Shown here: piece after piece, positions 9,040 through 34,535 of the stretch
Layout of the letters: each line of letters starts with the position of its first letter
Position numbering within the stretch: position 1 is the first letter of the stretch
From: an uncultured Candidatus Actinomarina sp.
GTDB lineage: Bacteria > Actinomycetota > Acidimicrobiia > Actinomarinales > Actinomarinaceae
Assembly: GCA_902622665.1 (NCBI GenBank)
Contig: CACNQV010000001.1
Coordinates: forward strand, 123,719-187,718
Direction of reading: 5' to 3'
Length of the DNA: 64,000 nucleotides
Translations under genes and position numbers: made by a program
Notes under the pieces: model-generated
Databases searched by the model: none
The model's input: only the letters and a program-made list of their open reading frames with translations
What the model was told of the DNA's origin: nothing

Positions 9040-9432
9040 ATGAAAACATTTATACGGGTCAATGTAATTGGTACTTCAGTATTTGGATTTACTGTTGCAG
9101 TTGCATTGCTCGTATTCAATAATCAGTTTTTTGATTTTCTTGGAATCACTGTCTCTGAAAACTATGCATTAAATCAAATCAAGGCGGATCTTGGAGGTCT
9201 TTGGATTCTAGTTGGCGTTGCACCACTTTTTTGGCTAAGAACAAAAGATAATTTTTGGATTAGGATTCTTTTTGTCACTCTAGGATTTGTGATGATTGCA
9301 AGGGTCATAAGTTTTGTGCAAGATGGGATTCATCCAATTTCAATCGTATTGCTAATTGGTGAGATGTGGTTATTTCTATTTACAAGATATATCTTGAAAA
9401 AATACCCCGAGGGGTCATTTTTTAAACTTTAA
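9040..9432 (+). CDS. hypothetical membrane protein (130 aa)
   Basis: Four predicted TM segments; tightly follows the previous ORF. Confidence 0.5.
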   Translation: MKTFIRVNVIGTSVFGFTVAVALLVFNNQFFDFLGITVSENYALNQIKADLGGLWILVGVAPLFWLRTKDNFWIRILFVTLGFVMIARVISFVQDGIHPISIVLLIGEMWLFLFTRYILKKYPEGSFFKL

Positions 9433-9836
9433 CTCAAACTTAATAAGTAAAGAGTTCTGCTGTTTACCTCTGATATCTCCTCAAGAATATTTTCTATATC
9501 ATCAAAAGAGTTCGATTCGTTTAATTCCGCTACAAATCCAGATAACTGTGTTACTTGGTCTTTGAAGTCGTTAATAAGATTTTTAGTCTCTTCTTTAGAA
9601 AAATAATTTTGCAAAGAATAAGGACCTTCACTGAACCTGAGCCTGGTGTTCTGGTTTCCCTGCCAAGACTCTACAAACTTGTCATTTAAGTCTGTAAGGC
9701 TTTCGTAATATTCGCCTAACGCTTGATGTTCAGCATAAGATTGAGTTTGCCAATGAAATACTTGGATGTTGTTCAAGAAACTCATTGTGTAAGACACAAA
9801 ATCGTCAATTTTTGTATTTAATATTTTTACATTCAT
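9429..9836 (-). CDS. ferritin-like / Dps-like protein (tentative)
   Basis: FHWQTQSYAEHQALGEYYESLTD resembles the Dps HW..G..F..LH..EE.Y motif; at 135 aa it is short for Dps. Confidence 0.3.
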   Translation of the reverse strand: MNVKILNTKIDDFVSYTMSFLNNIQVFHWQTQSYAEHQALGEYYESLTDLNDKFVESWQGNQNTRLRFSEGPYSLQNYFSKEETKNLINDFKDQVTQLSGFVAELNESNSFDDIENILEEISEVNSRTLYLLSLS

Positions 9837-9903
9837 GGAATTATTTAAACAAAAATGCGTTTATATGAGAAATTTTTATCTAAGAAAAATGTTTTTACGT
9901 GAT

Positions 9904-10650
9904 TTATAAATTGTAAGCCTGTACTGATTCCACGTATGAACATGTTTCACATTCTTCATTAAGGCTAGGTACAGACGTTTGGTCTAAAACTTTTTTAATT
10001 TCAATAATCTTTGGCTCTACCCAATCTGTTGATCCTTTATATTCCAAAACATAAGTTTTAAAATTCATAACATCATTAAATTTCTCCGCTGTTTTAATAC
10101 CATTTGAATATAAAAATACACTGTCATCAGAGACTTCAAATCCATTCATTCTAAATAACCACTGATAAATATCTATTTGTCTTTTGTACTGCTCCTTCCA
10201 TGGAGTACCATCATTTAAATCAATTCCACTTTGTGTAGATGTCGATTTGTATTCAACAATTACCAACTCATTTGTATCTGTGTCTATCCATACGTCATCA
10301 ATAGCTCCTGTAATTATTAAATCTGTTTTTTTATGATGATAAGCTATTCCTTTGAAGTTGTTTCTCCACTCCTCCATTTTTTCATGTTGGAAAGGAATTA
10401 AATTCTTGTTAAGACTTTCCATATAAGGATGTGTTTCAGCTTTTTCTCTATAAGTATCTAACTCTTTCTTCATTAATTCATCGTGGGCTGAATTTAATGA
10501 AAATCCTGGCATACCAATATCTTTAATGTTTCCAACTTTATTTAGGTAAAAACATCTCTGACATTTTATAAAACTGTCTATCCCGCTTCTACTTAACTTA
10601 AAAGTTTTTCCAGATTCGTATTTATATGTATTATTTTTTCTAAAAGCCAT
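9904..10650 (-). CDS. PD-(D/E)XK nuclease with 4-Cys cluster (Cas4/RecB-like), orphan
   Basis: N-terminal CQRC and C-terminal CETCSY cysteines bracket a D..(V)IVEYKS PD-(D/E)XK core (DDVWIDTDTNELVIVEYKST). No CRISPR array or cas genes nearby. Confidence 0.55.
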   Translation of the reverse strand: MAFRKNNTYKYESGKTFKLSRSGIDSFIKCQRCFYLNKVGNIKDIGMPGFSLNSAHDELMKKELDTYREKAETHPYMESLNKNLIPFQHEKMEEWRNNFKGIAYHHKKTDLIITGAIDDVWIDTDTNELVIVEYKSTSTQSGIDLNDGTPWKEQYKRQIDIYQWLFRMNGFEVSDDSVFLYSNGIKTAEKFNDVMNFKTYVLEYKGSTDWVEPKIIEIKKVLDQTSVPSLNEECETCSYVESVQAYNL

Positions 10651-14094: not shown

Positions 14095-14281
14095 ATTTAT
14101 ATATTAAACAAATATAGTGTCAAAATTTTTAAATCATATTTCAATATCGTCATATTCTAAAATACAAAAAATCTATAAAGCATTAGCTAGCAAAGAACGT
14201 TTCCTAAAAATACTTTCAAAAGACTATTTTTAAAACATTCGAAAACAAAAAAAGTCACTCAGAACAAAAAAGATTATTCGA

Positions 14282-15301
14282 TTAAAAAATAATTTTTTTT
14301 AAATTGTAGTCATCTTCAATATTTTTAAGTTCAAATGTAGAAATTAGAAGTTCGCCAATCTTTCCTCTGCCATCTCTTTTACTGTTAATAGACTTAGAAA
14401 CTAGGACCTCGTAAGCAAATAGCTCTTCATTTTGTAAAAATATCTCTCTTGCTAGTTCATTATTATTATTTGAAAGAATTACATTATTTCCATCTTCTGT
14501 TAACTTTAGAAATATTTTTCCTAGTTCCAAATGGTCTTTATATTTAAACCCTTGTGAACTGTAGTCAGTAAAATTTGATGTGTCTGAATTGGGTATATAA
14601 GGAGGATCTAAGTAAATAATGCTGTTTTTCTTTTCAATATTTTTGATAGTTTCTCTATATGAACTACATGTTATTTTCGCATTTGATAAATAAAGGCTTG
14701 CATTAGCAAGATTGTGTTTATCAATAATATTAACTTTTTTGTAGCTTCCAATCGGAACATTAAATTTATTATTACTATTTACCCTAAACATTCCGTTGAA
14801 ACATAACTTGTTAATTGCCTGCATCAAAACAGCAGATCTGATTTTTTGCTTTTTAGTTTTTGGTTTTGTTTGAATATACTCTACTTTTTCTTTTTTAAAT
14901 TCCTCTAGGTATGAAACTATTTTTTCTTTTACCCAAATCGAATTAAACTCCTCAACTAGGACTTTGTACTCATCAACAGGCCTCTTTTTTTTAGATAGTA
15001 ATTTATTGAACTTAACCTCTATTTCCTCACACTGTTCAATAAAACTTCCAAGATTCTTACTATCAGAAATAATCTCATAATAAGAAACAAGCTGGGGTAT
15101 AGCATCATTCAAATAAGCCGAATCAATTAATTCTAAATCTTTTAAGTGAAAGAAAATTGAACCTCCACCAAAAAATGGTTCATAGTAATCAAAAGTTTGA
15201 TTGTTTTCATTTTGGAGTAAAGAGAAAGCATCTGATATTAGATTTTTTAGTTTTGTCTTGCCTCCAACCCACTTAAGTGTTGGTTTAGTAATATTACTCA
15301 T
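14282..15301 (-). CDS. dam: Dam-family N6-adenine DNA methyltransferase
   Basis: MSNITKPTLKWVGGKTKL aligns to the Dam N-terminus (LKWAGGK); DPPY motif (YLDPPYIPNS). The track ORF runs to 15358, but a Dam-like start at the internal Met (15301) is more likely. Confidence 0.85.
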   Translation of the reverse strand: MSNITKPTLKWVGGKTKLKNLISDAFSLLQNENNQTFDYYEPFFGGGSIFFHLKDLELIDSAYLNDAIPQLVSYYEIISDSKNLGSFIEQCEEIEVKFNKLLSKKKRPVDEYKVLVEEFNSIWVKEKIVSYLEEFKKEKVEYIQTKPKTKKQKIRSAVLMQAINKLCFNGMFRVNSNNKFNVPIGSYKKVNIIDKHNLANASLYLSNAKITCSSYRETIKNIEKKNSIIYLDPPYIPNSDTSNFTDYSSQGFKYKDHLELGKIFLKLTEDGNNVILSNNNNELAREIFLQNEELFAYEVLVSKSINSKRDGRGKIGELLISTFELKNIEDDYNLKKIIF

Positions 15302-15356
15302 TGTATTAACACATATTACTAGACAGATAAGACTGAAATATTTAAAATGGGAAAAC

Positions 15357-15809
15357 ATGCTCAGTGATTATAAATCTGAAATGATTGCTATTTTTGAAAA
15401 TAATAGCTATAAATTACAGCCTATCAAAACTGAATTTGATACAAGTTTGATGATTAATCACATTACTAGAAGAACTCCCAAGCAAAATATCTATATAGCA
15501 ATTAAAGAGACCCAAGAACAGCCTAGATTAATGACAAGCAAAGCTGAATATTGCATAAGGTACATGGGGCAAGAAAGTCCCTCAGGTACAGCTTGGATGA
15601 AAATTGATCTATACGCCAAAGAGCTCAGTCACTGGGTACATAATATCGATTCTATTGACAAAGCTATCTTGTATTTGGGTGGAGATTTTTGGCAAGAAAT
15701 AAACATAAAAAACTATTGGAATAAGCTTGTAGAAAATTTGTCACTTCCTAGTGCTAATTTAAATATTGTTGATAGTGATGGCTTAGTTAACTTATTGGAG
15801 AATAAATGA
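15357..15809 (+). CDS. hypothetical protein, first gene of the GHKL/SNF2 operon
   Basis: In-frame ATG at 15357 (MLSDYKSEM...) avoids overlap with the divergent dam gene. Its stop overlaps the next gene's start by 4 nt. Confidence 0.4.
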   Translation: MLSDYKSEMIAIFENNSYKLQPIKTEFDTSLMINHITRRTPKQNIYIAIKETQEQPRLMTSKAEYCIRYMGQESPSGTAWMKIDLYAKELSHWVHNIDSIDKAILYLGGDFWQEINIKNYWNKLVENLSLPSANLNIVDSDGLVNLLENK

Positions 15810-17464
15810 CCCAATTTCAAATTCAGTTAGGTAATTCTTTTTTCAAATCTCTTGGTGCTGAAGACATGGAGCCATTGCTAGCAATAAACGAAATCATTGC
15901 TAACTCAATTGACTCGTGGATTGAAGAATATTGTGGTAAAAAAACAAAACGACCAAAACTATCGATAGATATCAAAATGTCAGCAAAAGAAATAACTATT
16001 CAAGATAATGCTGGAGGAATGGAACCAGAAGAGTTAAAAAATGCAATGGGACTTGCAAAAGTACAAAAAGAGCTCAGTGATTGTGCTGATGATTTAATGG
16101 GGATGTATGGATTTGGTCTTAAAGCTGCAACTGCAAATCTTGGAGGACATTTTGAAGTAGTTTCTAAAAGAAAAAATAAAGAACTCTGCCATGTGGTAAT
16201 GCCTATCGAAAAAATGGCCGAGGCAGTTCTTGAAGGAAAATCAGGAATGCTCAGTGATATTGAAGAAAGTGGGTATAACAAAAAAACAAAAATTAAAGAT
16301 GTAGAAAAATTATTTAAACCTGCAAATACAAAGTCTGGAACATTAGTTTATATTTCACAAATAAAAAGAACAAACTTTAATCCTGAGTCAATAATGAACG
16401 AATTGTGCTACGCATGGCATTTTTTCACTCAAGAAAATCATCTGGGGCCTCCTGTAGAGATAAAGTTCAACGGAGTAAAAATAGGCGAACCAGATTGGGG
16501 CAAAGAACAGGGTGGGCAAATTCCATATAGCTCCATAGATTTTGAGTTTCCATTTTCTTGGAGAGAAAAAACAAAAACAATTGATACTAAAATTCAATTT
16601 TCGATATGGCTTAATTTTAAAGGTGGACAATATCAAGCAGGTGGACTGTCTTTATATAGAAAACTTCAAATGGTTTCATATAGGGATCAGGAAATTGGTA
16701 AATGGTGGAGTAACGAATCTGCTGTTATAGAGGGGTATTTGAGCACAAGTTATTTAACACCTAACCAGCGTAAAGACGATTTAGATAGAACCACAAGGTT
16801 TTACAAAGAATTTAACAAAGCAATAGAACCTCTCATGAAGGGTGCTAGCAAGTTGGTTAGTTCATCAAGTGGATACTCAACTCTAGAAATGGCTAAAGAT
16901 GATTTTGAGAGGAACAAATTCCTAGCATTAAAGTGGCATAAATATTTCAATGAACATCCACTAATAAACGTAAGTTCAAAATTTCCAAAAGAACTTGAAA
17001 AATTTTTAAAAGACGAAAAAGATATTCCAGTTGGTCCTGATGAGCCTGGTCCAGAAGAACCAGGTGGTCCTGATGAGCCTGGTCCAGAGGAACCAGGTGG
17101 TCCAGAGAATCCGGTTGTTGAAATTTTTGAGCCTATCGATGAAAACTCTTTTAATTTTCATGGTGAAACATATCAACTCCTTATACTCAAAGACAAGACT
17201 GATGGAAGTAGTTATGACTGGAAAAAAACGGGAGAACAAATTGAAATATTTATTGATGATGAAATAGACGGCATAAATAAAGAAATGGAAGGTATGCTGA
17301 AAAAAATGACAGATGATCCTGGAACAGGTAAATGGGAAAAATTATCTTTAAATTTAATAAAAGAACACGTAATTCATCAATTTTTACTTAATGAAAATAT
17401 ACAAAATGCGCGAGCGTTTGCATTTGCAAAATCTTGGATTGAGAATATTTATAAAAATGAATAA
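15806..17464 (+). CDS. GHKL (Bergerat-fold) ATPase, MORC/MutL-like
   Basis: N-box EIIANSIDSW, G1 box QDNAGGM, G2 box GMYGFGLKAA; 552 aa; internal tandem repeat PDEPGPEEPGG x2. Confidence 0.7.
   Translation: MTQFQIQLGNSFFKSLGAEDMEPLLAINEIIANSIDSWIEEYCGKKTKRPKLSIDIKMSAKEITIQDNAGGMEPEELKNAMGLAKVQKELSDCADDLMGMYGFGLKAATANLGGHFEVVSKRKNKELCHVVMPIEKMAEAVLEGKSGMLSDIEESGYNKKTKIKDVEKLFKPANTKSGTLVYISQIKRTNFNPESIMNELCYAWHFFTQENHLGPPVEIKFNGVKIGEPDWGKEQGGQIPYSSIDFEFPFSWREKTKTIDTKIQFSIWLNFKGGQYQAGGLSLYRKLQMVSYRDQEIGKWWSNESAVIEGYLSTSYLTPNQRKDDLDRTTRFYKEFNKAIEPLMKGASKLVSSSSGYSTLEMAKDDFERNKFLALKWHKYFNEHPLINVSSKFPKELEKFLKDEKDIPVGPDEPGPEEPGGPDEPGPEEPGGPENPVVEIFEPIDENSFNFHGETYQLLILKDKTDGSSYDWKKTGEQIEIFIDDEIDGINKEMEGMLKKMTDDPGTGKWEKLSLNLIKEHVIHQFLLNENIQNARAFAFAKSWIENIYKNE
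17032..17104. repeat. 33-bp tandem repeat (x2 + partial) in the GHKL ATPase gene encoding PDEPGPEEPGG
   Basis: ggtcctgatgagcctggtccaga(a/g)gaaccaggt repeated directly. Confidence 0.8.
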
Positions 17465-18134
17465 AAAATTTAAACAAGCTTGGGAAGCACTATTAATATT
17501 AGAAAAATCTGAAAATCAAGAGTTAGCTGATTATGAAGATCAGCTACTTGATATATTAAATAGCCTATTTAACCACTGGCCTGAAAATGTTGATGATTTA
17601 ACTTTAGCTGACGAACTCAATACAACTGTTGCTAAAATTACCGCTTTAAAGTTTTTAAGTTCTATAGAAGAAGATGAATTAATCCCAGTTCTTAAAAAGT
17701 ACAGAAACACTTCGCTTTTATATGAAATATTAAAAATACCCGAGCAACCAAGAGGTGTTTTTTTAAATAGAGCAGGAAGAGTCAGGCATAATATTTCTAT
17801 GTTAGTAAAAATGGCCAATGATATGTTTAATGGTTTAACTGAAATTGAAAAAAATGAGAATTCTAATCCTTGGATGAAAAAAATTAGTGTTATAGATAAA
17901 AGTATCTGGGGAGATATAGCTAATGAAGCACAGGACTGGGGTATTAAAGAGCAGGATATTAAGAAAGTTGAGAAATTTAAAACAGGTAGAAAAAAAACAA
18001 TGCAGGATTGGGAATGGTTAAAAGATTTTGTAGAAATCCAGATAAATAAGAAAAATATTGCACCAAAAAATATACACGGAGAGCCTATGAATCATCACAA
18101 AGTTTTAATTGAAACATGGAAAAGAATAATCTAA
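17457..18134 (+). CDS. hypothetical protein (operon member, ~225 aa)
   Basis: Start MNKKFKQAWE overlaps the GHKL stop (8 nt); it ends 1 nt before the TTG start of the PLD-SNF2 gene. Confidence 0.45.
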   Translation: MNKKFKQAWEALLILEKSENQELADYEDQLLDILNSLFNHWPENVDDLTLADELNTTVAKITALKFLSSIEEDELIPVLKKYRNTSLLYEILKIPEQPRGVFLNRAGRVRHNISMLVKMANDMFNGLTEIEKNENSNPWMKKISVIDKSIWGDIANEAQDWGIKEQDIKKVEKFKTGRKKTMQDWEWLKDFVEIQINKKNIAPKNIHGEPMNHHKVLIETWKRII

Positions 18135-18135
18135 A

Positions 18136-21100
18136 TTGTCCTATAAAGATTTACGCTTAAGAAAAACAGTCGAAGGTAGTGGAAAGCTACTTAATAATGT
18201 AATAAAACCTGCACTTAAAGAAAACACAAAAACATTTAAAGCTCTTACTGCCTATTACAGTATCGGCTCACTAGAGGCAATAGGTAAAACGCTCGATTAT
18301 TTTCTAAGTAATGACGGGGTAATTCAAATTGTTATTGGAGATCAAATAGATGACGAGAGGACACTTAAAGGGGCTAGTGAAAAACTTCAAAAAGAAGAAA
18401 TTGAAATTTTTCAAAAAAAATTACAGGAAGATGTTGAACTTGTAAGAAATAAAAATTCAAGGTTTACAATTGCGACAATTGCATATTTGATTTTAGATGA
18501 AAAATTACAGCTTAAAGTGGCTAATTATAAAAATGGTGAGCTATGGCATCCTAAAATGTACCTACTTGAAGATAAAGACGGAAATAAAATAGCAGCATCT
18601 GGATCTGGAAATATGTCAGAAAGCGGTTTTGAAAAAAACTATGAAATACATGATATTTTTACTAATTGGGACTTCGGAACCGAGTACTTTTCATCAGAAG
18701 ATCCATCCGAACCAACAAAGGAAGAAATATTTTGGAGAATTTGGAATAATAACGATGAAAATACAGAGGTAAAAGAACTTGATAGAGAATACGCTCAAAA
18801 GCTATTAGAGAGAATTGGCAATCCATCAAAAGAAGATGTTGTTAAACACGTAGAACAAAAATTAAAAGATAACCAGAATGAAAATTTATTAGACTTTAAA
18901 AAAGATTTACAAACTTCTCCAATTTTTCATGAGTTCAATTTAGGTAAATCAGCACTATATCCACATCAAATAAATGCAGTACAAAAAGCATTAAAAATGT
19001 GGCCAATTAGGATTCTCTTTTCTGATGAAGTTGGATTAGGTAAGACTTTAGAATTAGGAACACTTATAGCTTACCTAATTAAAAACAATTTAGTAGATAA
19101 TGTTTTAGTCTTGGCACCACCACCATTGACTGAACAATGGCAGGATGAAATGAAACTACATTTTGAACTAGACTTTGCAAGATATGACAGAACAAAAAAA
19201 AGTTGGGTTTATAAAGATGAAGAATTTCCAAGCATTAAAGAAAATACTCCTTTAAGATATAGCGATAATTTTCCTTCTTTAGCAATAATGTCTAAATCTA
19301 TGGCAGTTCGTTCAAATGAGCAACATATCTTCTTAGAAAATGATTCTTATCCTGACTTTTTAGTAATTGATGAAGCTCATCATGCCAGAATGCATAGAGG
19401 TTACGATGGTTCAGCAAAAAAAACGAATTTTAGAAAAGTTGTGGAACAAATCTCTAATGAAATCAAACACATGGCGTTTGCGACAGCAACACCAATGAGA
19501 AAAAATATAGATGAATACTTCTTCTTATTAGATCTATTGGGTGTGGAAGAGTTGATAAGTGAGGAAGATTATGAAAAATCTCTTTCTATAATAAATGACT
19601 TCTACACGGATGGGAATAATAAATTTAATTTAAATGACCTTTCCTTAGTCAAAGATTTATTAATTAAAATAATTGAAAAATCAGAGGATCGTTTTTTTCA
19701 TAATTCTCCAGAAATTAACAGCCTTGTAAACGAACTTAAAAACGGTAAAGATGACAATGCGTGGCTTTTTGAGAATAGTAAAAAATTAATTGAGTTTCAT
19801 ACAATTTATCATCCAACAAGAATTTTGACATCAAGAAATGTTCAAGAAAATCTAAACAAGTTTTCCGAAATTTATAAAATACCTAAAAGAACTCTTAGAC
19901 CATCTCCAATTCTTCCAATTGATATTTCAAATGAGCTTAATGATTTCTTTTTTAGCATTATGGAGTATGTAGATAAATTTTATCAAATAACTGAGCTTGC
20001 TATTACACCTGATAAACAATTACCTCTTGGCCTTAGAAGGCATTCTTTACAAGAGAGATTCGCTTCAAGTTTTTGGTCAGCAAAAAAGAGTATCGCAAAC
20101 AGAAGAGAACATCTTATAAATTCGCTGGAAGAATTTAAAGAGAATAAAATTTCAAAAGAATTTTTTGAGAATTCTGATGAAAATGTTGACGAAGATACAA
20201 TAATTTCTGATTTAACAAAAAGTGAATTAGTCAGTGTTGACTGGGAAAACGTAATAAAGAATTGTGAGTCAGAGATAAGAGCATTAAATGCCTATGTTGA
20301 CTTGGCAGAAATAGTTATCAATAGCACTCCTGAAGATATTGATCCTGACCCTAAAATAAATGAAACTGTCAGGTTATTCTCTGAACACATAGAAAAAAAT
20401 CCTGGAAAACCATTATTAATTTTCTCTAAATATACAGATACTTTAAATGAAGTTGAACGAGCTGTCATTTCTTACTGTGAAAACAACGATATCCCTGTGG
20501 GATATGCTAGTTACAGGGGTGACTATCGAAGAATTAAGTACGCAAATGACCGTGAACATAGAAAAGCTGAAAAAAGAGATATTACAAGAGCTCTTAATAA
20601 CGGACGAGTTCAAGTAATATTTTGTAGCTCAGCTGCCAGTGAGGGGCTGAATTTGCAAGCAGCTTCTTACATGATCAATGTAGATGTGCCTTGGGTTCCT
20701 AGTGATCTTGAACAGAGAATTGGAAGAATTGCAAGGCTAGGTCAGAAAGAAGATGAGGTATTGATTGATAATATTTGGTACCCATTCAGTATTGAAAGCA
20801 ATATGTATAAAAGACTTATTGATCGCCAGAGAGATATGTCATTTGCAATTGGACAATTTCCAGACTTGATTGCAGAGGCGATTAAAAATTTTGTAGACGA
20901 TAAAGATGCAAAAAAAATTGAAAAAACGATTGATGAAATTAATAAAAAGAAAAATAGCTATGAAATGAGAGTGTTAAATGAGCTATGGATCCAGGATGGG
21001 AATGAACCCCTTCATCCTTGGGGGAACGTATTTAGAAAAGAAATCCTCGAAATTATGCAAAAATTAGATTTAAATACCGAAAGTATTGATTCGAACTCAG

Positions 21101-21501
21101 GCTCATTGGACATTCTACATTTTCATTTAACAGAGTTTGAAGAAATATTTAATCAAGAACCAGAAGAACATGGTTCTAATACAAATTTGTTAGGCATTTA
21201 TTCAAATGAACAATTGGTAGGTTTTAAATTATTAAAAGACGGTGAAGAGAACGGTTTATTAATAAATCCTATCAATTTACCACAAGTACTAGAAAGTCTC
21301 TTTTTTGGAAGTAGCTTATCTATAGAGACTTATGACAAGCAACCAGACACTCTCAATAAATTACTTGACTTTTATTTAGATATAAAATTCCCGAGCTTGT
21401 TGCCAGTTCATCATTTAATTTCATTTATCGAAAACGAAATAAGTCAAAACTCGTTTGATAGAGAGCTAAAAGAAAAAGTAATAGGCAGAGTTACTCTGTA
21501 A
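18136..21501 (+). CDS. PLD-family (single HKD) nuclease fused to SNF2/SWI2 family helicase
   Basis: TTG start. N-terminus carries an HKD motif (HPKMYLLEDKDGNKIAASGSGNMS). Helicase motif I DEVGLGKT, motif II VIDEAHHAR, motif VI QRIGRIARLGQ. 1121 aa. Confidence 0.8.
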   Translation: MSYKDLRLRKTVEGSGKLLNNVIKPALKENTKTFKALTAYYSIGSLEAIGKTLDYFLSNDGVIQIVIGDQIDDERTLKGASEKLQKEEIEIFQKKLQEDVELVRNKNSRFTIATIAYLILDEKLQLKVANYKNGELWHPKMYLLEDKDGNKIAASGSGNMSESGFEKNYEIHDIFTNWDFGTEYFSSEDPSEPTKEEIFWRIWNNNDENTEVKELDREYAQKLLERIGNPSKEDVVKHVEQKLKDNQNENLLDFKKDLQTSPIFHEFNLGKSALYPHQINAVQKALKMWPIRILFSDEVGLGKTLELGTLIAYLIKNNLVDNVLVLAPPPLTEQWQDEMKLHFELDFARYDRTKKSWVYKDEEFPSIKENTPLRYSDNFPSLAIMSKSMAVRSNEQHIFLENDSYPDFLVIDEAHHARMHRGYDGSAKKTNFRKVVEQISNEIKHMAFATATPMRKNIDEYFFLLDLLGVEELISEEDYEKSLSIINDFYTDGNNKFNLNDLSLVKDLLIKIIEKSEDRFFHNSPEINSLVNELKNGKDDNAWLFENSKKLIEFHTIYHPTRILTSRNVQENLNKFSEIYKIPKRTLRPSPILPIDISNELNDFFFSIMEYVDKFYQITELAITPDKQLPLGLRRHSLQERFASSFWSAKKSIANRREHLINSLEEFKENKISKEFFENSDENVDEDTIISDLTKSELVSVDWENVIKNCESEIRALNAYVDLAEIVINSTPEDIDPDPKINETVRLFSEHIEKNPGKPLLIFSKYTDTLNEVERAVISYCENNDIPVGYASYRGDYRRIKYANDREHRKAEKRDITRALNNGRVQVIFCSSAASEGLNLQAASYMINVDVPWVPSDLEQRIGRIARLGQKEDEVLIDNIWYPFSIESNMYKRLIDRQRDMSFAIGQFPDLIAEAIKNFVDDKDAKKIEKTIDEINKKKNSYEMRVLNELWIQDGNEPLHPWGNVFRKEILEIMQKLDLNTESIDSNSGSLDILHFHLTEFEEIFNQEPEEHGSNTNLLGIYSNEQLVGFKLLKDGEENGLLINPINLPQVLESLFFGSSLSIETYDKQPDTLNKLLDFYLDIKFPSLLPVHHLISFIENEISQNSFDRELKEKVIGRVTL

Positions 21502-21697
21502 CTAATCTTTTAGCTTCATCAGGATCAAATCCATTAGTTACAAGATCTTCTCTCTTTGTACAACCACGACAAGGTTGCTGCTCTGTAATATCTGTATATT
21601 CTTGATAAATTATTTTAGATTCATGAATTTTTTCTAACCATTTGCAATCTCGAAATTTATGATAGGTTTTTTCATTTGTTGTTATAAAATCAGACAT
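21491..21697 (-). CDS. small Cys-containing hypothetical protein (68 aa)
   Basis: C..C..CRGC pattern, possible zinc ribbon; overlaps the end of the SNF2 gene by 11 nt. Confidence 0.25.
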   Translation of the reverse strand: MSDFITTNEKTYHKFRDCKWLEKIHESKIIYQEYTDITEQQPCRGCTKREDLVTNGFDPDEAKRLVTE

Positions 21698-21741
21698 AAG
21701 TAAAGAGTAACAAATAAAATAAGGAAGTAGAAGAATAAAAA

Positions 21742-22332
21742 ATGTTTGAAGAAAGATTTGGAAGCTTTGTTAAAAAAAACTATGAAATTCATGAATTTGG
21801 TAATGCTTCATCAATCTTCAAACATGATTATCCAACTGAATTTAATGAATTAAAAAGCTCCCTAGAGAATTTTACTCTCAAGAAATCTAATTTGATGGCA
21901 GGAGGAGGTGGAAAGTCAAAAATACCTCCTACTTTTGAAGATCCCTTGTATAAAAATGGATGGATTGAAAAAAATTTTGATATCAGTATTTCACTTGATG
22001 GTGTTGAAAACAAAATTGAGACACATAAAATTGACTGTTTTAAAAACAAAATAGGTATCGAAGTCGAGTGGAATAATAAAACAGAGTTTTATGATAGAGA
22101 TTTAAATAACTTTAGGGTATTGCATAGTTTAAATGCTTTAGACTTAGGAATAATCATTACAAGATGTGATGAGTTAAATGATATTTTTGACACTTTAAAT
22201 ATTAAATCAAAATATGGTTCATCCACAACTATTTTAAGCAAACTATTATTTAAAGTTAGAAGTGGTTCACTTGGCGGTTGCCCCCTTTTAATTTTCGGAA
22301 TTAAAAAAAGTTTATACAGAGATAATTTGTGA
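21742..22332 (+). CDS. hypothetical protein; possible BamHI-like restriction-endonuclease fold
   Basis: IDCFKNKIGIEVEW gives D-x11-E-x-E spacing reminiscent of the BamHI catalytic D..ExE motif. Weak. Confidence 0.3.
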   Translation: MFEERFGSFVKKNYEIHEFGNASSIFKHDYPTEFNELKSSLENFTLKKSNLMAGGGGKSKIPPTFEDPLYKNGWIEKNFDISISLDGVENKIETHKIDCFKNKIGIEVEWNNKTEFYDRDLNNFRVLHSLNALDLGIIITRCDELNDIFDTLNIKSKYGSSTTILSKLLFKVRSGSLGGCPLLIFGIKKSLYRDNL

Positions 22333-22383
22333 GGTAAAAAATAATACTGGCTTTAAAACATTTGTCATGAAGCCAGTACCGGC

Positions 22384-22959
22384 TCAGTATGAATCTACAA
22401 TAAAATAGTCACCACTAGGAATATTCCAGGCTTTAACTGCATCGAACCACCTAAAATGTCCTTCAGCTTCATTGGTATCTCCTGCAAAAACTATTCCCGA
22501 TACGTATTGAAATAACAATGATGAACATTTTCCATTGACATGAGACTTTGATGATTTCATATCAACTGCCCTTATTAATTTTTCAATATATTGAATAGTT
22601 CTTAAGGTAACTTGGCCTCCCGCATTTTTTCTATTCAATCTTATGTAGTCATTAATATTAGGCTTTGGTCTATTTAAACGTTGAGAAATTCTTACTGGAG
22701 CTAAAAACGCGTCTGGATCCTTTAAGTCATCTAATTTTCCATCTATTTCCAAAGAAATTTGCATATCTTCCTTATTAAATCTCATAATTATCCAAATATC
22801 TTTACCAAATTTAGACGTACCGAGATACCTTCGACCATTAAAAGTGTCTTTCTTTAACGCATTTGTAAGAAATTGCTCTTTTTTTCTTTTTTTAAGTTCT
22901 AACTTTTTGTTATCTATTTTTTTATTCAAATAATCCCCTTTCAATGTAAATTTGCACAA
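22384..22959 (-). CDS. hypothetical protein (191 aa)
   Basis: ORF; basic N-terminus; no motif recognised. Confidence 0.4.
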   Translation of the reverse strand: MCKFTLKGDYLNKKIDNKKLELKKRKKEQFLTNALKKDTFNGRRYLGTSKFGKDIWIIMRFNKEDMQISLEIDGKLDDLKDPDAFLAPVRISQRLNRPKPNINDYIRLNRKNAGGQVTLRTIQYIEKLIRAVDMKSSKSHVNGKCSSLLFQYVSGIVFAGDTNEAEGHFRWFDAVKAWNIPSGDYFIVDSY

Positions 22960-23093: not shown

Positions 23094-24839
23094 ATGGGTA
23101 AAGCGACATTTTTTGAGGGAGAATATCCAGAATCAAATACTTCTGAAAAAAAGGTTGCAGAAATTTTAAAAAAATTTTCAAATGAATGGACAATTTTTCA
23201 CTCTGTAAAAGTCCATGATCCCGAAACTGAAAAGCTAACAAATACAGAAATTGACTTTTTACTTATTCATCCTGCATATGGATTTATACAGATAGAGGTA
23301 AAAGGGAAAGGATACCAAACAGATGAGGAGGGTAATTGGTTTATAAAAAAAGGACCAAATAAAGAAAAAGTAGCTTCTCCAATTGATTCACTTGGTGAAA
23401 AACAATCTAAGATAATGAAAACTTTCCTGTATCACAATAAATCTATAAAGGGAGTAGATCTTTTTAATGTAAATGTACCCATAATATCACTTATGTTTTG
23501 GACTGACTTAAAGCGTGAAGATCTACCAATTGCAGAGGTTTCAGAAGTCAATTCTTACTTTGTTGAAGATATATTTATTCCGGTGGAAAGTCTTGAAGAA
23601 AATTTATTACAAAAATTGCAGAAACATATAAAAGTAAATAAAAAAATAAAATTTGATAAAAACAAGTGGTTGACTCCATTCTTAGGAAAACCCTTTGTTA
23701 CTACAGCTATTAATATTTTTAAACCATATCAGAAGAGTTATAAATTAAAGTCAGCAACAGGTAGAACCAGTAATGAATTAGAACTTGCTACACAAGAACA
23801 GATTGAGCATTACAAGATACTAACTGACAGCAGTTACAAACGTCACCTTGTAAGTGGCCCTCCAGGAAGTGGAAAGACTGTGTTAGCTAAAGCTATAGCT
23901 AGGGAAAGAGCAGAAGAAGGTAAAAAAGTACTTTTTATGTGTTTCAACAGGGCATTAGCTGATGAGATTGATTTTGAATTTAGGAAAGAAGAAAATATTG
24001 AAGTCATGTCTATGTGGAAGTATTTTAAACTACTTGGGATATCGTGGGAAGATACTGTTGAGCATGAAGGTAAGAAAATAGTACTTCAAAAACTACCTCC
24101 CCATATTTCATCAAAGTATATTGCGAAATTGTTAGAAGAAAAAATTAATGATGCTGTAGATAATTTTAAATTTGACACCCTGCTTATTGATGAAGCACAA
24201 GATTTTTCAGAAAAATATTGGGATTTTTTTAAATTACTTTTTGCTGAAAAGCCTGAATCAGCTTGGTATTTATTTTTTGACACAAACCAAGCTCTTACAC
24301 ACCCTGAATGGTCGCCTCCACTATTTGAAATATCTCATTCAAATTTACCCCTGACTTATATATTGAGATGTACTGAAAACATATCTTATAAAGTACAAAA
24401 TATATTTGAATCTAAGTTTGGCTTCAAGGGAATTACTGGAGAAGAACCTGAATTTTTAGTTGTAAATGAATCCTCATGGAACAAATCTTTGGAAGAGTTG
24501 GTGGAGTTATTAAAAAATCTTATAGACATTGAACATTTTTCTCCAAAACAATTATCGGTGCTGGTGCCTCACTCACGAGATATAGATTTGGTAAAAGGTT
24601 ATAAATATGATGAAGAAAGTTCTATTGAATCGAAAAAAATTAATGTATCTTCAGTTTACAAATACAAAGGACTAGAAAATGATATTGTTATAGTCGTCAT
24701 ACCTAGCTGGGATTCATTAAATGCCGATTATATACTTCAGCCCCTTAGTCTTGCCTATGTTGGCTTTTCGAGAGCAAAGACTAAATTGTACGTCATAGGA
24801 GATAAAAAAATCCAAAAAGAAATAAATTGGAACAAATAA
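23094..24839 (+). CDS. NERD-domain nuclease fused to UvrD-like SF1 helicase (Nhi-like)
   Basis: N-terminal NERD-like D..E.K core (EIDFLLIHPAYGFIQIEVKG); Walker A SGPPGSGKT; motif II LLIDEAQDF; UvrD-C-like end (YKGLENDIVIVV). Confidence 0.75.
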   Translation: MGKATFFEGEYPESNTSEKKVAEILKKFSNEWTIFHSVKVHDPETEKLTNTEIDFLLIHPAYGFIQIEVKGKGYQTDEEGNWFIKKGPNKEKVASPIDSLGEKQSKIMKTFLYHNKSIKGVDLFNVNVPIISLMFWTDLKREDLPIAEVSEVNSYFVEDIFIPVESLEENLLQKLQKHIKVNKKIKFDKNKWLTPFLGKPFVTTAINIFKPYQKSYKLKSATGRTSNELELATQEQIEHYKILTDSSYKRHLVSGPPGSGKTVLAKAIARERAEEGKKVLFMCFNRALADEIDFEFRKEENIEVMSMWKYFKLLGISWEDTVEHEGKKIVLQKLPPHISSKYIAKLLEEKINDAVDNFKFDTLLIDEAQDFSEKYWDFFKLLFAEKPESAWYLFFDTNQALTHPEWSPPLFEISHSNLPLTYILRCTENISYKVQNIFESKFGFKGITGEEPEFLVVNESSWNKSLEELVELLKNLIDIEHFSPKQLSVLVPHSRDIDLVKGYKYDEESSIESKKINVSSVYKYKGLENDIVIVVIPSWDSLNADYILQPLSLAYVGFSRAKTKLYVIGDKKIQKEINWNK

Positions 24840-24840
24840 C

Positions 24841-26295
24841 CTAAAGTAAGCTTGCCAGCCAATCATGCAGTAAATACAAGTTTTTACAATCTGCTTTGTT
24901 ATATTCAATAATTAAATCTTTTAATTCGTATTCCTCATTAAAAAAATAATCTTCAAAATACTGAATTGATTCCATTCCAGATTGTAAATCTTCAGTTCTA
25001 TTTATACCTGCTAACTTCTCAACTGTTTTTAAGGAGTAAGAACTTGCTCCAATCAACAATGAAGAGTTGACTATTGTAAATAAGTCTATAAAACACTTTT
25101 TTTCAATAAGTTGTTCTAATTCCTTTTCATACACGCCAAAGTTCTGAGCAGATCTTTTCAGAGAGGAAATTTCGTAACTAAAGTAGTGATAAAACTTTGC
25201 ATCAGGATACAGTTCTAAATGTTCAAGTAATTTTTCTATAAAGCTAACAAAAGAATTTTTTTCTTCTTCTTCGTCATCAGACCAGTAGTAAGTGAAACTA
25301 TCATTTTTGTCATTACTCCAAATGCCATAGAGGTATTCAAAGTTTCTACCAATAGTTAAAAACGGGTACCCCTCAAAATCGATATACAAGTCTCCTTTTT
25401 TAGGTTTTAGTAATCCATTTAAAGATGCATCTTTTATTTCATATGAAATTTTATTTTCGGTTGAGTCATTAAAAAGCTGGGCTAATTTTTTGTACTTAGT
25501 AAATGTAGCCTCGCCCATGCCGTCAATTTTTTCTAAATTAGTATTTTTTAATTCTTCAACAGTTTTGATGTCATTGTTTTTTAATTTCTCAATCTGTTTA
25601 GCTTGAATTCTATATAAAAGTTCGAGGCCATTATCTTTAATCCAAATTTTTTTAGCTTCATCATCGTACTCTTGGAGTTCTTCCCCTTTCTTTGGGTATG
25701 GTGGCGTTTCAGGATCGTATAAATTGTTGAAGTCCATAAACTGATTTTTAAGTTCCGCATAGATTTCCTTGTATTCATCAAATTCAACTTTATGCATTTG
25801 CAAATCTCCAAGAAACAAAAAACATTCCGTTACCTGTTTTTTGGTAACTGTTTCAAGAATTTCTCTGTAAACAAATAGTTGCATAATATGTTCTGTTTTT
25901 ATTGAAGATGAAAGCTTTGCATCAATTATGTGTAAGTTGTCATCTACTATTTTTACAAAATCTAATCTTCCGACAAAATCTATTGAAGAAATATAAGGTT
26001 GAAAAATAACATCAGGATTTTTCTCAAGTTCTTTTAAAAATACTTTGTTTGAAGAGTCTTTATTAGACATATCAACAACATTTAAATTTTCTGAAATTCT
26101 ATATTTGTCTTTTAAAACAACCTCATGCTCTTGTGCTTTTGTTAAAAGCTGTTTAGAAATTAATTTTGAGGCATTAATTTGTATTTTGTATTTAGCATCA
26201 ATTTTTTTTTCATCTACAAGTCTGTTTGTTTTATTACACCAGTAGCTAAAAGGTGAATTGTAGAATCTAATAAATTCTGATACGCTATGAGGCAT
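24841..26295 (-). CDS. RecB-family nuclease (COG2251/TM0106-like)
   Basis: PD-(D/E)XK-like HIIDAKLS...QLFVY segment plus a DnaQ/RNaseH-like YIDFEGYPF segment; shares an operon with sbcDC; overlaps the sbcC stop by 11 nt. Confidence 0.5.
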   Translation of the reverse strand: MPHSVSEFIRFYNSPFSYWCNKTNRLVDEKKIDAKYKIQINASKLISKQLLTKAQEHEVVLKDKYRISENLNVVDMSNKDSSNKVFLKELEKNPDVIFQPYISSIDFVGRLDFVKIVDDNLHIIDAKLSSSIKTEHIMQLFVYREILETVTKKQVTECFLFLGDLQMHKVEFDEYKEIYAELKNQFMDFNNLYDPETPPYPKKGEELQEYDDEAKKIWIKDNGLELLYRIQAKQIEKLKNNDIKTVEELKNTNLEKIDGMGEATFTKYKKLAQLFNDSTENKISYEIKDASLNGLLKPKKGDLYIDFEGYPFLTIGRNFEYLYGIWSNDKNDSFTYYWSDDEEEEKNSFVSFIEKLLEHLELYPDAKFYHYFSYEISSLKRSAQNFGVYEKELEQLIEKKCFIDLFTIVNSSLLIGASSYSLKTVEKLAGINRTEDLQSGMESIQYFEDYFFNEEYELKDLIIEYNKADCKNLYLLHDWLASLL

Positions 26296-29200
26296 TTAAA
26301 TCAATTAAGTTTACATCTTTGGATGATTTGCTTAATGCCTCAGCAAATACCTCGTCGTGTGTAAGAACAACAATTTGTGTTTCTGTTGCTAAGTCTTCTA
26401 AGACTTTAATAAAGCCTGCTTGTGAATTCCTGTCTAAATGATCTGATATATCATCGTAGAATAGTGGAAATCTAAAATCTGAATTTTTAAAAGTTTCAAG
26501 TTGCACTGCCATCCTTACTGCTAAGGCAATTGCGGCTTGTTCTCCATCACTGTGTAAGTGAAGCTCTTTATCTCTTGTATTTTCTTTAGATACTTGATAT
26601 TTCACACTTAAAATATCTTCTTCTTCGTCAAACTCAACACCTGATAAGTTTGGATTAATTTTATTGATGATGGAATTTATTCTCTTTTTTAAATCAAGTG
26701 TTATATTTGCTGTGTTCTTCAATTGCTCATCAACTAAATAAAGCGCTAATACTGTTGAAAGATATTGTTTTCTTGCTTCCTGCCACTCCCTCAAAATCTT
26801 ATACTTTTCAGAAAGTAAATCTTCCTTTTTGTAATCCGGTTCTGTAAATAAAGCACCTTCTAAACTGCTAAGTTCTAGTTTTTTATCTTCTCTTTTTGAT
26901 ATTGTCTCTTCTAGTTCATCGTCTATTTCATCAGAATTGACTAAAAGAGTATCAATAGTAAGTTCACTTGATAATATCTTCTTTGCAAACTGATCTTTTT
27001 CAGATTTCTTAAAAAAGTTAAGCTCATTATCATCGAATAAGGTTTCTAGTTGTTCTAGTACTAAAATCACACTTTCTATTTCATCAAGAGATTCTGCATC
27101 ATATGTGCTTAGGATGTTCTTATTCATTTTTTCAGCGTCTGTTATATATTTCTTGGATCCTTTGATTTCTTCTTCTAGTTGTTTTTTATTCTCAAGTTCT
27201 TCCTCTAACTTGGATATTGAATTGTTAAAATCTTCAATGTGGCTTTGAAGAGAAGTTCTTTCTAGTTCTTCTATTTCTAAATCTTTACTAATAGGTTCTA
27301 GTAGTTTTTTTAGGCTTTTCTTCTTAGAGTTCAGATCTGTAGTGAGACTATTGAGTTCTAGATTTTGCTCTTCTAAATTTAATGTGTCTTGATTTAAATC
27401 AACTAAAAGATCTAATTGCTCTTCTAAATCTTCACTTTCCATAAAAGCTTTCGAAACTTTATATTTTTTTATTAACTCATCAGACGCTTTTTTAATTTCT
27501 GTGATGCCTTCTTTCTTTTTGCTTAATTCTTCTTCTAACTTGCTCTTTGAATCATTTAAGGTGTTTAATTCCTCTTCTAAATCTATTAAGTCATCTAACT
27601 GATCGAAATAATAGGAGAAATCCGAGTCTTTAAGGGTTACTTCACCCAATTTATATTTTTTTGAGATTGTCTCATTTTTCTTTAAAATATTCCTTACATC
27701 AGAGGTATATGTCTTTTCTTTGAGTTTTAAAATTTTGATTTCTTCTTCTATAGACTGAAACTGTAATCTTGTTGTTAAATTTTTAACTAGACTCTCATAA
27801 TCATCATGAATTAAAGACACCTTAGACATTATCAATGTCTCATTTTCCACAATAATATCTAATAGATCTTCTAATTTTTTTATATCTTTATAAGATTTAT
27901 GAACTTTTTTAAATGTCTTTTGATTTTCTTCTAAAATGCTCTGGATAGATTCTGTAATTGAAAATATATCATCTCCTCTATAGTCAATGTGCTGTGTGCC
28001 GGCTTTGTCTTCATTCAATCTTTTTAGCTTCTTCTTTGTCTCATTAGAGTTTTGTTTGATATCAAGAATTTCTTTATTGAGTTTTTTCAACAACGTTTTA
28101 TCTTTTGCGGTTATTTTTTCTTTTTTTAATTGAGCTATAGTCTGAGGAGAAAAGCCACAACTATCTATTGACTCTTTAATTTCTTGTTTCTTGTTTTTTA
28201 TATCGATTTTAAGTTTTGCTATTTCATCTACTAAAGGTTGTGAATCAAATTCATTTATCTTGTTAGAAATTGTAAGTATTTTGTTTTTATCACTTTCTTT
28301 TAACTTAGTTTTTTTATAGAACGCAACACTTGTTTTTGTCAGATTTAACTCTTCTTCTATTTCCGTTAAGGCAGTTTTTAAACTTTCAACTTTATCTATT
28401 TGTAAAAGAACTTTTTCGTTTGCATTTTCATACTCATCAAATGCAGTGAGATAGGTGTCTACTTCCAATTCTTTTAAATTGGTCTTTTTGACTCCACCAA
28501 TCCTTTCATCACACTCTTCCAATTGGATTTTTAAATCTACTAGATTATTTCCCTTCACTTCAACCTCTGAAATAGATTCATTCAAATTTTTATAATCTGA
28601 TTCTATTTTTACGAGCTTATGGGTTTTATAAGAATTGGTCTTAATGTTTTTCTTTTGAAGAGAATTTAGTGAATCTAGTAATTCTCCAATATTTTCAATA
28701 TGTTTTTGTTGAATTTGTATTTCTGTTTTTGTAGATTCCAGTTCACTAATTTTTGTATTCAGGCTTACTATATTTTTCTTTAACTTAGCTATGTCCTCTT
28801 CATCATTTTTAGATAAATTATCTCTATTTTCTTTCTCTGTTTTTTCAAGGTCTTTTAGCCTATCGTTTACATCTTTTAAATTGTTTTGAAGCTCTCCAAT
28901 TTTTGTTAGGTTTTTAGTTCTTGTTGCACTCTCTGTTTTATCTGTCAACTTAGTTGCATACTCAGCATAAGACATAACAGCTTCTTCAACATTTTGAGAC
29001 ATTGAACCTGACGCTACGCTTATTAACTTTATTAAATCATTTCTTATGTTTTTATCTAACGAAATTGAACCTTGTATGTCTGAAATCATCTTTGTTGATG
29101 TAAAAAAGAAGTTTGAAAATAATCTTCGCATCTTCTCAACATCATCTATTTGAGGATATATATTTTTTATCTGTTCATTAATATTTTTGTCCCACTTACT

Positions 29201-29482
29201 TCTTGAAATTGAAAGCTTGTCTCCATTGCTGTCAATATTTAAGATAACTCCTCCAGATCCAATTTCTGTTCGTGACACTGCAGTTGGTCCGTCATAATCA
29301 TATTGAAAATAGTGATCGCTTTTTGTGGGTATTCCAAAAAGCAAATGATAAAGAGACTTCACAATAGATGATTTGCCAGAACCATTATCTCCAAGCAAAA
29401 CATTTATATTAGGTTCGAATGAAATTGGCTTGAAGTCAACTAGGGCACCGTATTTTAGGATTGATAATTCTTCAAACTTCAT
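26285..29482 (-). CDS. sbcC: SbcC/Rad50-like SMC ATPase
   Basis: N-terminal Walker A LLGDNGSGKSS; long coiled coil; C-terminal signature/Walker B region (HSDGEQAAIALA, LFYDDISDHLD). Confidence 0.8.
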   Translation of the reverse strand: MKFEELSILKYGALVDFKPISFEPNINVLLGDNGSGKSSIVKSLYHLLFGIPTKSDHYFQYDYDGPTAVSRTEIGSGGVILNIDSNGDKLSISRSKWDKNINEQIKNIYPQIDDVEKMRRLFSNFFFTSTKMISDIQGSISLDKNIRNDLIKLISVASGSMSQNVEEAVMSYAEYATKLTDKTESATRTKNLTKIGELQNNLKDVNDRLKDLEKTEKENRDNLSKNDEEDIAKLKKNIVSLNTKISELESTKTEIQIQQKHIENIGELLDSLNSLQKKNIKTNSYKTHKLVKIESDYKNLNESISEVEVKGNNLVDLKIQLEECDERIGGVKKTNLKELEVDTYLTAFDEYENANEKVLLQIDKVESLKTALTEIEEELNLTKTSVAFYKKTKLKESDKNKILTISNKINEFDSQPLVDEIAKLKIDIKNKKQEIKESIDSCGFSPQTIAQLKKEKITAKDKTLLKKLNKEILDIKQNSNETKKKLKRLNEDKAGTQHIDYRGDDIFSITESIQSILEENQKTFKKVHKSYKDIKKLEDLLDIIVENETLIMSKVSLIHDDYESLVKNLTTRLQFQSIEEEIKILKLKEKTYTSDVRNILKKNETISKKYKLGEVTLKDSDFSYYFDQLDDLIDLEEELNTLNDSKSKLEEELSKKKEGITEIKKASDELIKKYKVSKAFMESEDLEEQLDLLVDLNQDTLNLEEQNLELNSLTTDLNSKKKSLKKLLEPISKDLEIEELERTSLQSHIEDFNNSISKLEEELENKKQLEEEIKGSKKYITDAEKMNKNILSTYDAESLDEIESVILVLEQLETLFDDNELNFFKKSEKDQFAKKILSSELTIDTLLVNSDEIDDELEETISKREDKKLELSSLEGALFTEPDYKKEDLLSEKYKILREWQEARKQYLSTVLALYLVDEQLKNTANITLDLKKRINSIINKINPNLSGVEFDEEEDILSVKYQVSKENTRDKELHLHSDGEQAAIALAVRMAVQLETFKNSDFRFPLFYDDISDHLDRNSQAGFIKVLEDLATETQIVVLTHDEVFAEALSKSSKDVNLIDLNAS

Positions 29483-34531: not shown

Positions 34532-34535
34532 AAAA

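Follow-up and report, generated by a model that had tools for sequence, protein, structure and literature searches.

The window analysed here, a 64-kb stretch of DNA from an uncultured Candidatus Actinomarina sp., carries at ~14.28–21.70 kb a group of six genes that looks like a mobile, restriction-modification-like (R-M) defence cassette of 7.4 kb. The leftmost gene, on the minus strand (14282..15301), encodes an N6-adenine DNA methyltransferase of the D12 class (Dam; PF02086, TIGR00571). Divergently from it, on the plus strand, follow the genes for an accessory protein of 150 amino acids (aa) that is limited to certain lineages and has no family match (SMALL1, 15357..15809), a MORC-like GHKL ATPase composed of GHKL and S5 transducer domains, a P/E/G-rich linker and a conserved C-terminal domain (GHKL, 15806..17464), an all-helical signature protein of 225 aa that possibly binds DNA (MID, 17457..18134), and a 1121-aa fusion of a single-HKD phospholipase D (PLD) nuclease to an SNF2-family motor of helicase superfamily 2 (SF2), initiated at a TTG codon (PLD-SNF2, 18136..21501). 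The last gene, ORF68 (21491..21697, minus strand), is convergent and encodes a 68-aa protein with a Zn-ribbon-like pattern and conservation at the protein level. Outside this core cassette, a 196-aa Type II restriction endonuclease of the BglII family (PF09195) is encoded on the plus strand at 21742..22332.

All the open reading frames (ORFs) listed in an earlier sequence-only reading of this DNA were found in place, and the tight coupling that it had described was seen at each junction. The genes for SMALL1 and GHKL overlap by 4 nt in an ATGA at 15806–15809, the ATG of MID at 17457 lies upstream of the GHKL stop codon (17462–17464), giving an 8-nt overlap, and a single nucleotide separates the stop of MID from the TTG start of PLD-SNF2 at 18136, a start also used in two close relatives (loci L009 and L010). 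The Dam ORF does extend to 15358, as had been read, but its start is likely at 15301 (MSNITKP...), because of its homologues and of the N-terminus KPTLKWVGGK (KPxxKWxGGK); with this start, ~55 bp separate the divergent starts of Dam and SMALL1. ORF68, with the pattern YHKFRDC...PCxGC, had been missed by that reading. Its protein is conserved in three sub-lineages, including the L005-type loci and L053, and with this gene the conserved cassette ends on the right; ORF68 and SMALL1 are probably accessory or regulatory genes. Promoter scans gave no signal above chance, terminator-like sites were only marginally in excess of shuffles (8 vs. 3.5 ± 2.1), and no tRNA genes were present in the 64-kb window or flanking the island.

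To locate the strain boundaries, six related loci were compared with the window by blastn. On the left side, homology ends at ~14175–14340, which corresponds to the 3' end of the Dam gene, and the DNA beyond it is unrelated between strains. On the right side, homology breaks at 21721/21722, just past ORF68, in every locus without the endonuclease (L009, L017, L028), and no such break was found in the three compared loci that have it. The block conserved among the Candidatus Actinomarina relatives spans ~14.2–21.72 kb of the window, from Dam to ORF68. From these breakpoints, therefore, the cassette consists of Dam, SMALL1, GHKL, MID, PLD-SNF2, and ORF68, and the endonuclease is a separate, strain-variable insertion.

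A wider search, in which the contexts of ever more distant homologues were followed, metagenome contigs were scanned and ~107 loci were mapped with custom hidden Markov models (HMMs), revealed that the invariant unit is the triad formed by GHKL, MID, and PLD-SNF2, always in this order and mostly with overlapping stops and starts. The order is retained from 100% down to ~22% GHKL identity, in ~100 marine metagenome loci, which come from several phyla, and on one haloarchaeal plasmid. The four operon genes had been expected to occur together in other genomes, which is true for these three in the ~100 loci but not for SMALL1. MID, taken before as a mere small ORF, is instead a core, signature component of the triad, with homologues of ~220–240 aa across the triad loci. 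Its family is rare, as HMMER, run in full over 1.84 billion representatives, detected just 36 relatives. The GHKL protein was found on Tara and other marine contigs, and in two Candidatus Actinomarina assemblies (single-cell or metagenome-assembled genomes, MAGs) with 82–85% identity and the same neighbours. No triad was detected in the viral contigs scanned, where the only GHKL match was a weak one in a giant-virus MAG. The haloarchaeal triad lies on the Haladaptatus plasmid NZ_CP120471 (L025/L107, 131.5–150 kb), directly upstream of genes for a DrmA-like helicase, a DUF1998 protein, and a PLD protein, that is, of a DISARM core. Compared with the window, its GHKL is 23% identical (E 5e-14) and its PLD-SNF2 32%, and its MID shares an AD-L-TT motif; plasmid tblastn with this archaeal GHKL returned nothing but itself.

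The association of the operon with a methylase was also recovered outside the window. With lineages defined as GHKL clusters at 60% identity, a DNA methylase adjoins the triad in 11 of the ~14 independent lineages with informative flanks, the methylase types being confirmed by Pfam. The D12 gene is divergent and upstream of the triad in the clade of the window, in the L005 clade, and in clusters 5, 6, 9, and 12; in L083, L094, L095, and L099 it comes directly after the triad, on the strand of the latter and 13–100 nt away, and in L045, L046, L051, and L081 it is downstream past one or more extra genes. In L014, L019, L093, and L103, the methylase near the triad is of the C5 type, either convergent or co-directional. 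A linkage that survives both rearrangement and a change of chemistry is a classical signature of functional coupling, and points to a functional link between methylase and triad. Between the window and the L005 clade, identities were 40% for Dam, 46% for GHKL, 41% for MID, and 56% for PLD-SNF2; Dam has thus diverged about as much as the triad, consistent with joint inheritance. In two further loci, L080 (2662–4949) and L085, the methylase is of type I, with hsdM/hsdS genes straight after GHKL and MID and no PLD-SNF2; the GHKL-MID pair seems able to partner a different motor-nuclease system (type I R-M). As a separate observation, a conserved protein of ~430 aa, with no Pfam or PADLOC match, is encoded just before GHKL, often overlapping it, in the clades with a downstream D12 gene (L083, L084, L086, L087, L089, L090, L095, L099, L100, L102, L035).

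The divergent position of the methylase was confirmed, and its Dam-family assignment stood up to the family searches (PF02086, 3.7e-46; TIGR00571, 186.6 bits, cut-off 114.85). In the PDB, two GATC-specific enzymes matched it best, DpnM (4e-37) and E. coli Dam, and its DNA-recognition hairpin (FNGMFRVN..FNVPIGSYKK) aligns with those of these two enzymes; a comparable hairpin is present in all the triad-linked D12 enzymes. Judging from these relatives, the specificity of Dam is probably GATC, and the protein is the probable self-marking enzyme of the cassette. When the window ORFs of at least 150 aa were searched, its DPPY was the sole such motif in a methylase-like ORF, and one further match (DPPW) was located in a peptidase-like ORF. 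Whole-window palindrome counts showed GATC as the most significantly depleted 4-mer palindrome (observed/expected, O/E, 0.71; 146 observed, 207 expected), a mild depletion, with CATG comparably low (O/E 0.76); these two are the most depleted common 4-mer palindromes. In addition, the C5 methylase of L019 shares 43% identity, along its whole length, with a Haladaptatus dcm encoded beside a Sau3AI-family endonuclease. Such specificity hints fit a GATC-centred theme in a circumstantial manner. Within residues ~83–157, Dam carries ~35–40 residues that DpnM and E. coli Dam lack; this insertion follows the N-terminal AdoMet-binding motif and precedes the recognition hairpin.

The 196-aa protein encoded past ORF68 belongs to the BglII restriction-endonuclease family (PF09195, 1.3e-38). 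The sequence-only reading had described in it a D-x11-ExE motif and had counted it as a possible part of the locus. The actual motif is D98-x8-E107-x-E109, and the gene is a clean 615-bp presence/absence polymorphism outside the conserved block, present in L001, L010, L029, and L033 and absent from L009, L017, and L028. Locus L009 lacks exactly this gene (21722–22336 missing), as homology resumes at 22337, and L017 lacks it together with the next ORF, as homology resumes at 23092. This next ORF, of 191 aa (22384–22959, minus strand), has no family match; being absent from L017 and present in L009 and L010, it constitutes another small variable module. The window endonuclease had no sequence match in the PDB; with the L019 protein of the BglII family it shares a weak similarity (23%, E 0.024), and with the 183-aa gene of L014 none. 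Loci L019 and L099 have diverged BglII-family enzymes beside the triad, with C5 methylases as their partners. Canonical BglII works with an N4-cytosine methylase. In the window, the enzyme is probably a separate, dispensable Type II endonuclease that relies on the same Dam methylation for protection.

A Dam closest to DpnM and E. coli Dam, with a BglII-family endonuclease beside the cassette, recalls a Type II R-M system of the DpnII/MboI kind, and Dam-type methylases and BglII-family enzymes do make ordinary R-M pairs. The locus could accordingly hold two unrelated systems, a Type II pair being split by a stand-alone, methylation-independent triad, and the methylase would then be the partner of the endonuclease alone. 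Embedded defence genes are documented (bioRxiv 10.1101/2024.01.29.577857; PMC11232893), BglII- or Sau3AI-family endonucleases recur near triads, and triads without a methylase exist in one clade (clade F, see below) and in Haladaptatus. However, the endonuclease is the dispensable partner among strains and inserts as a clean indel beyond the conserved block, whereas Dam stays with the triad in its absence in L009, L017, L028, all L005-type loci, and clusters 5, 9, and 12. A split pair, which we regard as unlikely, is also at odds with clusters 2 and 7, where the D12 gene lies on the strand of PLD-SNF2 and 13–100 nt past it.

The GHKL protein (552 aa) matched HATPase_c_3 (6e-15), and a profile built from 14 homologues ranked MORC3, MORC4, and MORC2 at the top of the PDB matches, in agreement with the Bergerat-fold ATPase with MORC/MutL-type boxes that had been recognised from the letters. 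It has all four nucleotide-binding motifs and an S5-fold domain with a basic finger, which is the criterion used by Iyer et al. 2008. The S5 stretch G280-L-S-L-Y284-R285-K-L-Q288-M-V (GLSLYRKLQMV) aligns in the same frame with the MORC motif GhXhhpXXRhl, with an invariant Q in place of the MORC signature R and an invariant R three residues earlier. On these features, the protein may represent a MORC-like or paraMORC-type branch. Its residues ~405–438 (window ~17018–17120) form a low-complexity P/E/G-rich linker with the repeat PDEPGPEEPGG and a predicted local distance difference test score (pLDDT) <50; the linker differs in length and composition among homologues and separates the MORC-like module from the conserved C-terminal domain. 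MID gave no Pfam match and showed a weak similarity to the ParB/KorB DNA-binding fold.

SMALL1 yielded nothing meaningful in Pfam, PADLOC, NCBIfam, or PDB profile searches. It is confined to the clade of the window plus L079, L081, and L082, and its inclusion in the system was not upheld, as it is missing from most clades and, in L081, travels with Dam and not with GHKL. In that locus SMALL1 is divergent from Dam and overlaps by 4 nt a gene with a SAD/SRA domain; its apparent connection is with the methylase or with the reading of modifications, and not with GHKL. The SAD/SRA gene (PF02182, 5e-44; L081 6133–7076, minus strand, also in L082) encodes a modified-base reader, and in both loci the SMALL1 and SAD/SRA pair is located between PLD-SNF2 and Dam.

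Regarding the effector candidate, the fusion of an HKD nuclease to a complete SNF2 motor was confirmed. Pfam matches to SNF2-rel_dom (7e-14), Helicase_C (8e-18), and also ResIII were obtained, and the N-terminus matched PLDc_2 marginally (26.2 bits, just below the gathering score of 27). Of 38 distinct family members, 36 retain the motif H138-x-K140-x5-D146...G156-S-G-N159, and all have GLGKT, DEAH, and QRIGRIARLGQ; the catalytic motifs are kept in all three enzymes, Dam, GHKL, and PLD-SNF2. PADLOC models that matched were PLD_Helicase (2e-55), DrmD (6.5e-51), HmaA (5e-46), and PbeA (2e-44). In NCBIfam, the matches to phospholipD_antiphage (6e-83, 279.7 bits) and DrmD (193 bits) remained below their cut-offs, the former far under 1100 and the latter under 610. 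The best PDB match was RapA (2e-26). Furthermore, over 79% of its length, PLD-SNF2 shares ~25% identity with the protein at the MtsD position in a DUF499-DUF1156 operon of Haloferax pHG3 (tblastn 1e-50). By similarity, PLD-SNF2 is a relative of MtsD but no equivalog, and it is predicted to act as an ATP-dependent translocating nuclease.

The view that the locus is no named system was supported, as PADLOC v2 and NCBIfam scans gave single-protein matches only and no full gene set. A close parallel is with MANTIS/Gao_RL (BREX-related type 2), composed of MtsA (an ORC/Cdc6-clade DUF499 AAA+ ATPase), MtsB (DUF3870), MtsC (a DUF1156 N6-adenine methylase), and MtsD (a PLD-SF2 helicase). Experiments have shown MtsD to act on unmethylated targets as a restriction effector, in the form of a dimeric PLD-helicase (bioRxiv 10.64898/2026.09.23.753747). 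Both systems have a regulatory ATPase, a small co-factor, an adenine methylase, and a PLD::SF2-helicase effector with a single HKD per chain, the last feature implying a dimeric nuclease site. They differ in that the ATPase of the cassette is a MORC-like GHKL, with no DUF499 or BrxC match in the cassette, that MID shows by hhalign no similarity (probability 0.05%) to the protein at the MtsB position of Haloferax pHG3, and that the methylase is a small D12 enzyme (or a C5 one), transcribed divergently in the window, and not a DUF1156 protein.

As the sequence-only reading had noted, the cassette is similar to predicted R-M operons with a MORC gene, those of Iyer, Abhiman & Aravind 2008 (PMC2292703), in which MORC is associated with an SFII helicase, a nuclease, and a methylase. 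Also mentioned there are helicases with an N-terminally fused HKD and neighbouring genes for DAM or a Type II endonuclease; HKD accompanies Rad25-like helicases, and SWI2/SNF2 accompanies HNH or EcoRII-like nucleases. The broad class is therefore already known as a prediction. The cassette shares with it the GHKL+S5 ATPase beside an SFII helicase, a nuclease, and a methylase, an SNF2 protein with fused HKD being adjacent to the ATPase. In contrast, the fusion of HKD to SNF2 in the cassette, MID, and the D12 architecture were not described there. In the literature on bacterial MORC/GHKL defence, whose coverage was incomplete so that absence is no proof, we found no experimental description of this architecture.

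The loose likeness to DISARM class 1 that had been proposed stood in part. The SNF2 protein (DrmD-like, 6.5e-51), the PLD nuclease, the adenine methylase, and the defence-island setting are shared, and the lack of DrmA and DrmB was confirmed, but the closest characterised relative of the effector is MtsD of MANTIS/Gao_RL. Among the 27 proteins scanned (5.5–39.9 kb), there was no DUF1998 match, and the only DrmA match came from the helicase core of PLD-SNF2. DISARM was rejected, as the cassette has no DrmA/DrmB; moreover, its PLD is fused, its methylase is D12 and not of the DrmMI type, and GHKL and MID are present. Hma combines an Snf2 helicase with a C-terminal PD-(D/E)xK nuclease (HmaA, DUF3883), a DUF1156 methylase (HmaB), and a DUF499 AAA+ (HmaC) (PMC11232893). 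It is similar in its Snf2 helicase-nuclease fusion, methylase, and ATPase, and in having defence-gene insertions within the locus; it was rejected too, the nuclease of the window being an N-terminal HKD, without DUF3883, DUF1156, or DUF499 matches. Finally, Mza was rejected on a MzaB score of 21 bits against a cut-off of 850, a PADLOC match (1.8e-4) over the GHKL core only, and no other Mza proteins.

On balance, and with clear reservations, we infer that the cassette probably functions as a methylation-linked, ATP-dependent, restriction-like defence. This reading is supported by the homology of the effector to MtsD of MANTIS and DrmD of DISARM, and by the strain comparison, in which Dam to ORF68 stay together as a unit, the DNA to the left being variable and the BglII-family indel lying to the right. 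In such a system, Dam would mark host DNA, probably at GATC, as its homologues do. GHKL would dimerise on ATP and clamp DNA, by analogy with MORCs and MutL, and MID, from its ParB/KorB-like fold, could be its DNA-binding or adaptor partner. Together they would license PLD-SNF2 on unmodified DNA, as the homology with MtsD/SauUSI-type enzymes suggests. PLD-SNF2 would then translocate on double-stranded DNA with ATP and cut through a site formed by two dimerised single-HKD domains. In comparison with MANTIS/Gao_RL, GHKL would take the place of the DUF499 AAA+, and the small D12 methylase that of the DUF1156 enzyme. By the same analogy, the sensor of unmodified DNA could be the methylase itself.

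Several observations weigh against this interpretation. In clade F, of 26 loci arranged as DUF805, triad, and two conserved 140-aa genes, custom HMMs for methylases of the D12, C5, and HsdM types found none within up to 8–10 kb, several of these loci having 5–10 kb flanks. In Haladaptatus, the nearest methylases are two C5 enzymes ~10 kb off, beside a MutH/Sau3AI-family endonuclease. Since neither the clade F nor the Haladaptatus triads have an adjacent methylase, the coupling does not hold everywhere. Neither GHKL nor MID nor PLD-SNF2 contains a domain recognisable as a methylation reader or as sequence-specific, and, with defence genes crowded in tiny genomes, some of the linkage may be island co-location. 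In addition, PLD-helicases of the SauUSI type attack modified DNA, so the polarity could be reversed. The triad would then be a Type IV-like or methylation-blind nuclease that, in the manner of SauUSI, hits modified or aberrant foreign DNA, the methylases being orphan, regulatory or members of other systems. The combination of PLD and SF2 helicase is the architecture of SauUSI, to which MtsD is structurally close, a SAD/SRA modified-base reader lies beside the triad in L081 and L082, and the clades without methylase are as this alternative would have them. Nevertheless, an attacker of methylated DNA is unlikely to be kept in one operon with an active methylase in many lineages and with two methylation chemistries, and Pfam detected no SauUSI-type target-recognition domain in PLD-SNF2, which makes this alternative quite improbable.

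The setting of the triads bears on another possibility, that of a housekeeping function in repair or chromosome maintenance, in which a MutL-like ATPase, Dam, and a helicase-nuclease would act in strand discrimination in lineages without MutS/MutL. The family is very small, patchy across phyla, and restricted to variable islands, where its neighbours are TIR, SLATT, NERD-helicase, DarT, R-M, and DISARM genes, its flanks differ between strains, and no MutS-like mismatch sensor was seen. We consider such a role very improbable.

If the cassette is indeed a methylation-linked defence, a more specific and rather doubtful proposal is a methylation checkpoint, made up of the MORC-like ATPase with its ParB-like partner, that would license the nuclease at unmarked GATC-type sites, the mark being interchangeable (m6A of the Dam type or m5C of the Sau3AI type). 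Hints in this direction are that the methylases and endonucleases near the triads all belong to GATC-associated families (Dam, BglII, and MutH/Sau3AI with C5), and that the GHKL-MID pair seems able to exchange its effector for type I R-M. Were it true, the checkpoint would represent a MutL-MutH-Dam-like logic turned to immunity, and a prokaryotic counterpart of the methylation-coupled MORC silencing of eukaryotes.

MORC ATPases play a major part in the epigenetic silencing of foreign DNA in animals and plants, and the proposal that they originated in bacterial R-M systems has, to our knowledge, never been tested by experiment. The cassette offers a compact candidate with clear boundaries and natural variants, in which the Type II endonuclease is present or absent, the methylase is D12, C5 or missing, and the partner is PLD-SNF2 or type I R-M. 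It could reveal by what means a GHKL clamp links a motor-nuclease to the methylation status of DNA. On the reading favoured here, the methylation-based dual-ATPase defences (BREX-related, MANTIS, DISARM) would gain a third, unrelated class of regulatory ATPase, and a defence system would be added for an abundant uncultured marine picoplankton (Candidatus Actinomarina), whose immune repertoire is poorly known.

The proposed defence-island setting was confirmed for the window. The cassette stands among defence-type genes, in a stretch flanked by ordinary metabolic genes, and the island includes Cas4-like nucleases, a NERD + UvrD-like helicase, an SbcCD-like pair, and an Hsp70-like protein. On the left side, at 9429–10650 (minus strand), a DUF5856 protein and a Cas4-like PD-(D/E)xK nuclease are encoded. 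On the right side, the gene at 23094–24839 (plus strand), which had been read as Nhi-like, encodes a NERD nuclease with a UvrD-like helicase; its Nhi match was weak, and stronger PADLOC matches were obtained for RTasNERD-Hel (1.2e-32), with 'NERD+UvrD' candidate C3a187 also matching (7.7e-21). A gene of this type also neighbours the triad in L045, L051, L093, and L103. It is followed on the minus strand by a fusion of Cas4-like PD-(D/E)xK and RNase_H_2 (24841–26295) and by an SbcC-like/SbcD-like pair (26285–30822); this pair (AAA_23 with weak LmuB matches, and Metallophos) may be either a housekeeping SbcCD or a defence module. At 32282–35321 (plus strand), the gene for an Hsp70/MreB-like protein of 749 aa and, after it, that for a protein of 261 aa with a weak ZorA/MotA-like match in PADLOC may form another island pair.

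Two further recurrent neighbours of the triad were seen in other genomes. In the methylase-less loci L004, L021–L024, L052, L055, L062, and L065, the gene for the DUF805 membrane protein overlaps the GHKL start, and two conserved 140-aa proteins without family match are encoded after PLD-SNF2. A cluster of VWA and Tubulin_2 genes (plus an 821-aa protein and PDDEXK_3) occurs repeatedly beside GHKL-MID or the triad (L097, L101) and also upstream in L003, L004, L020, and L062, and may be another uncharacterised island system.

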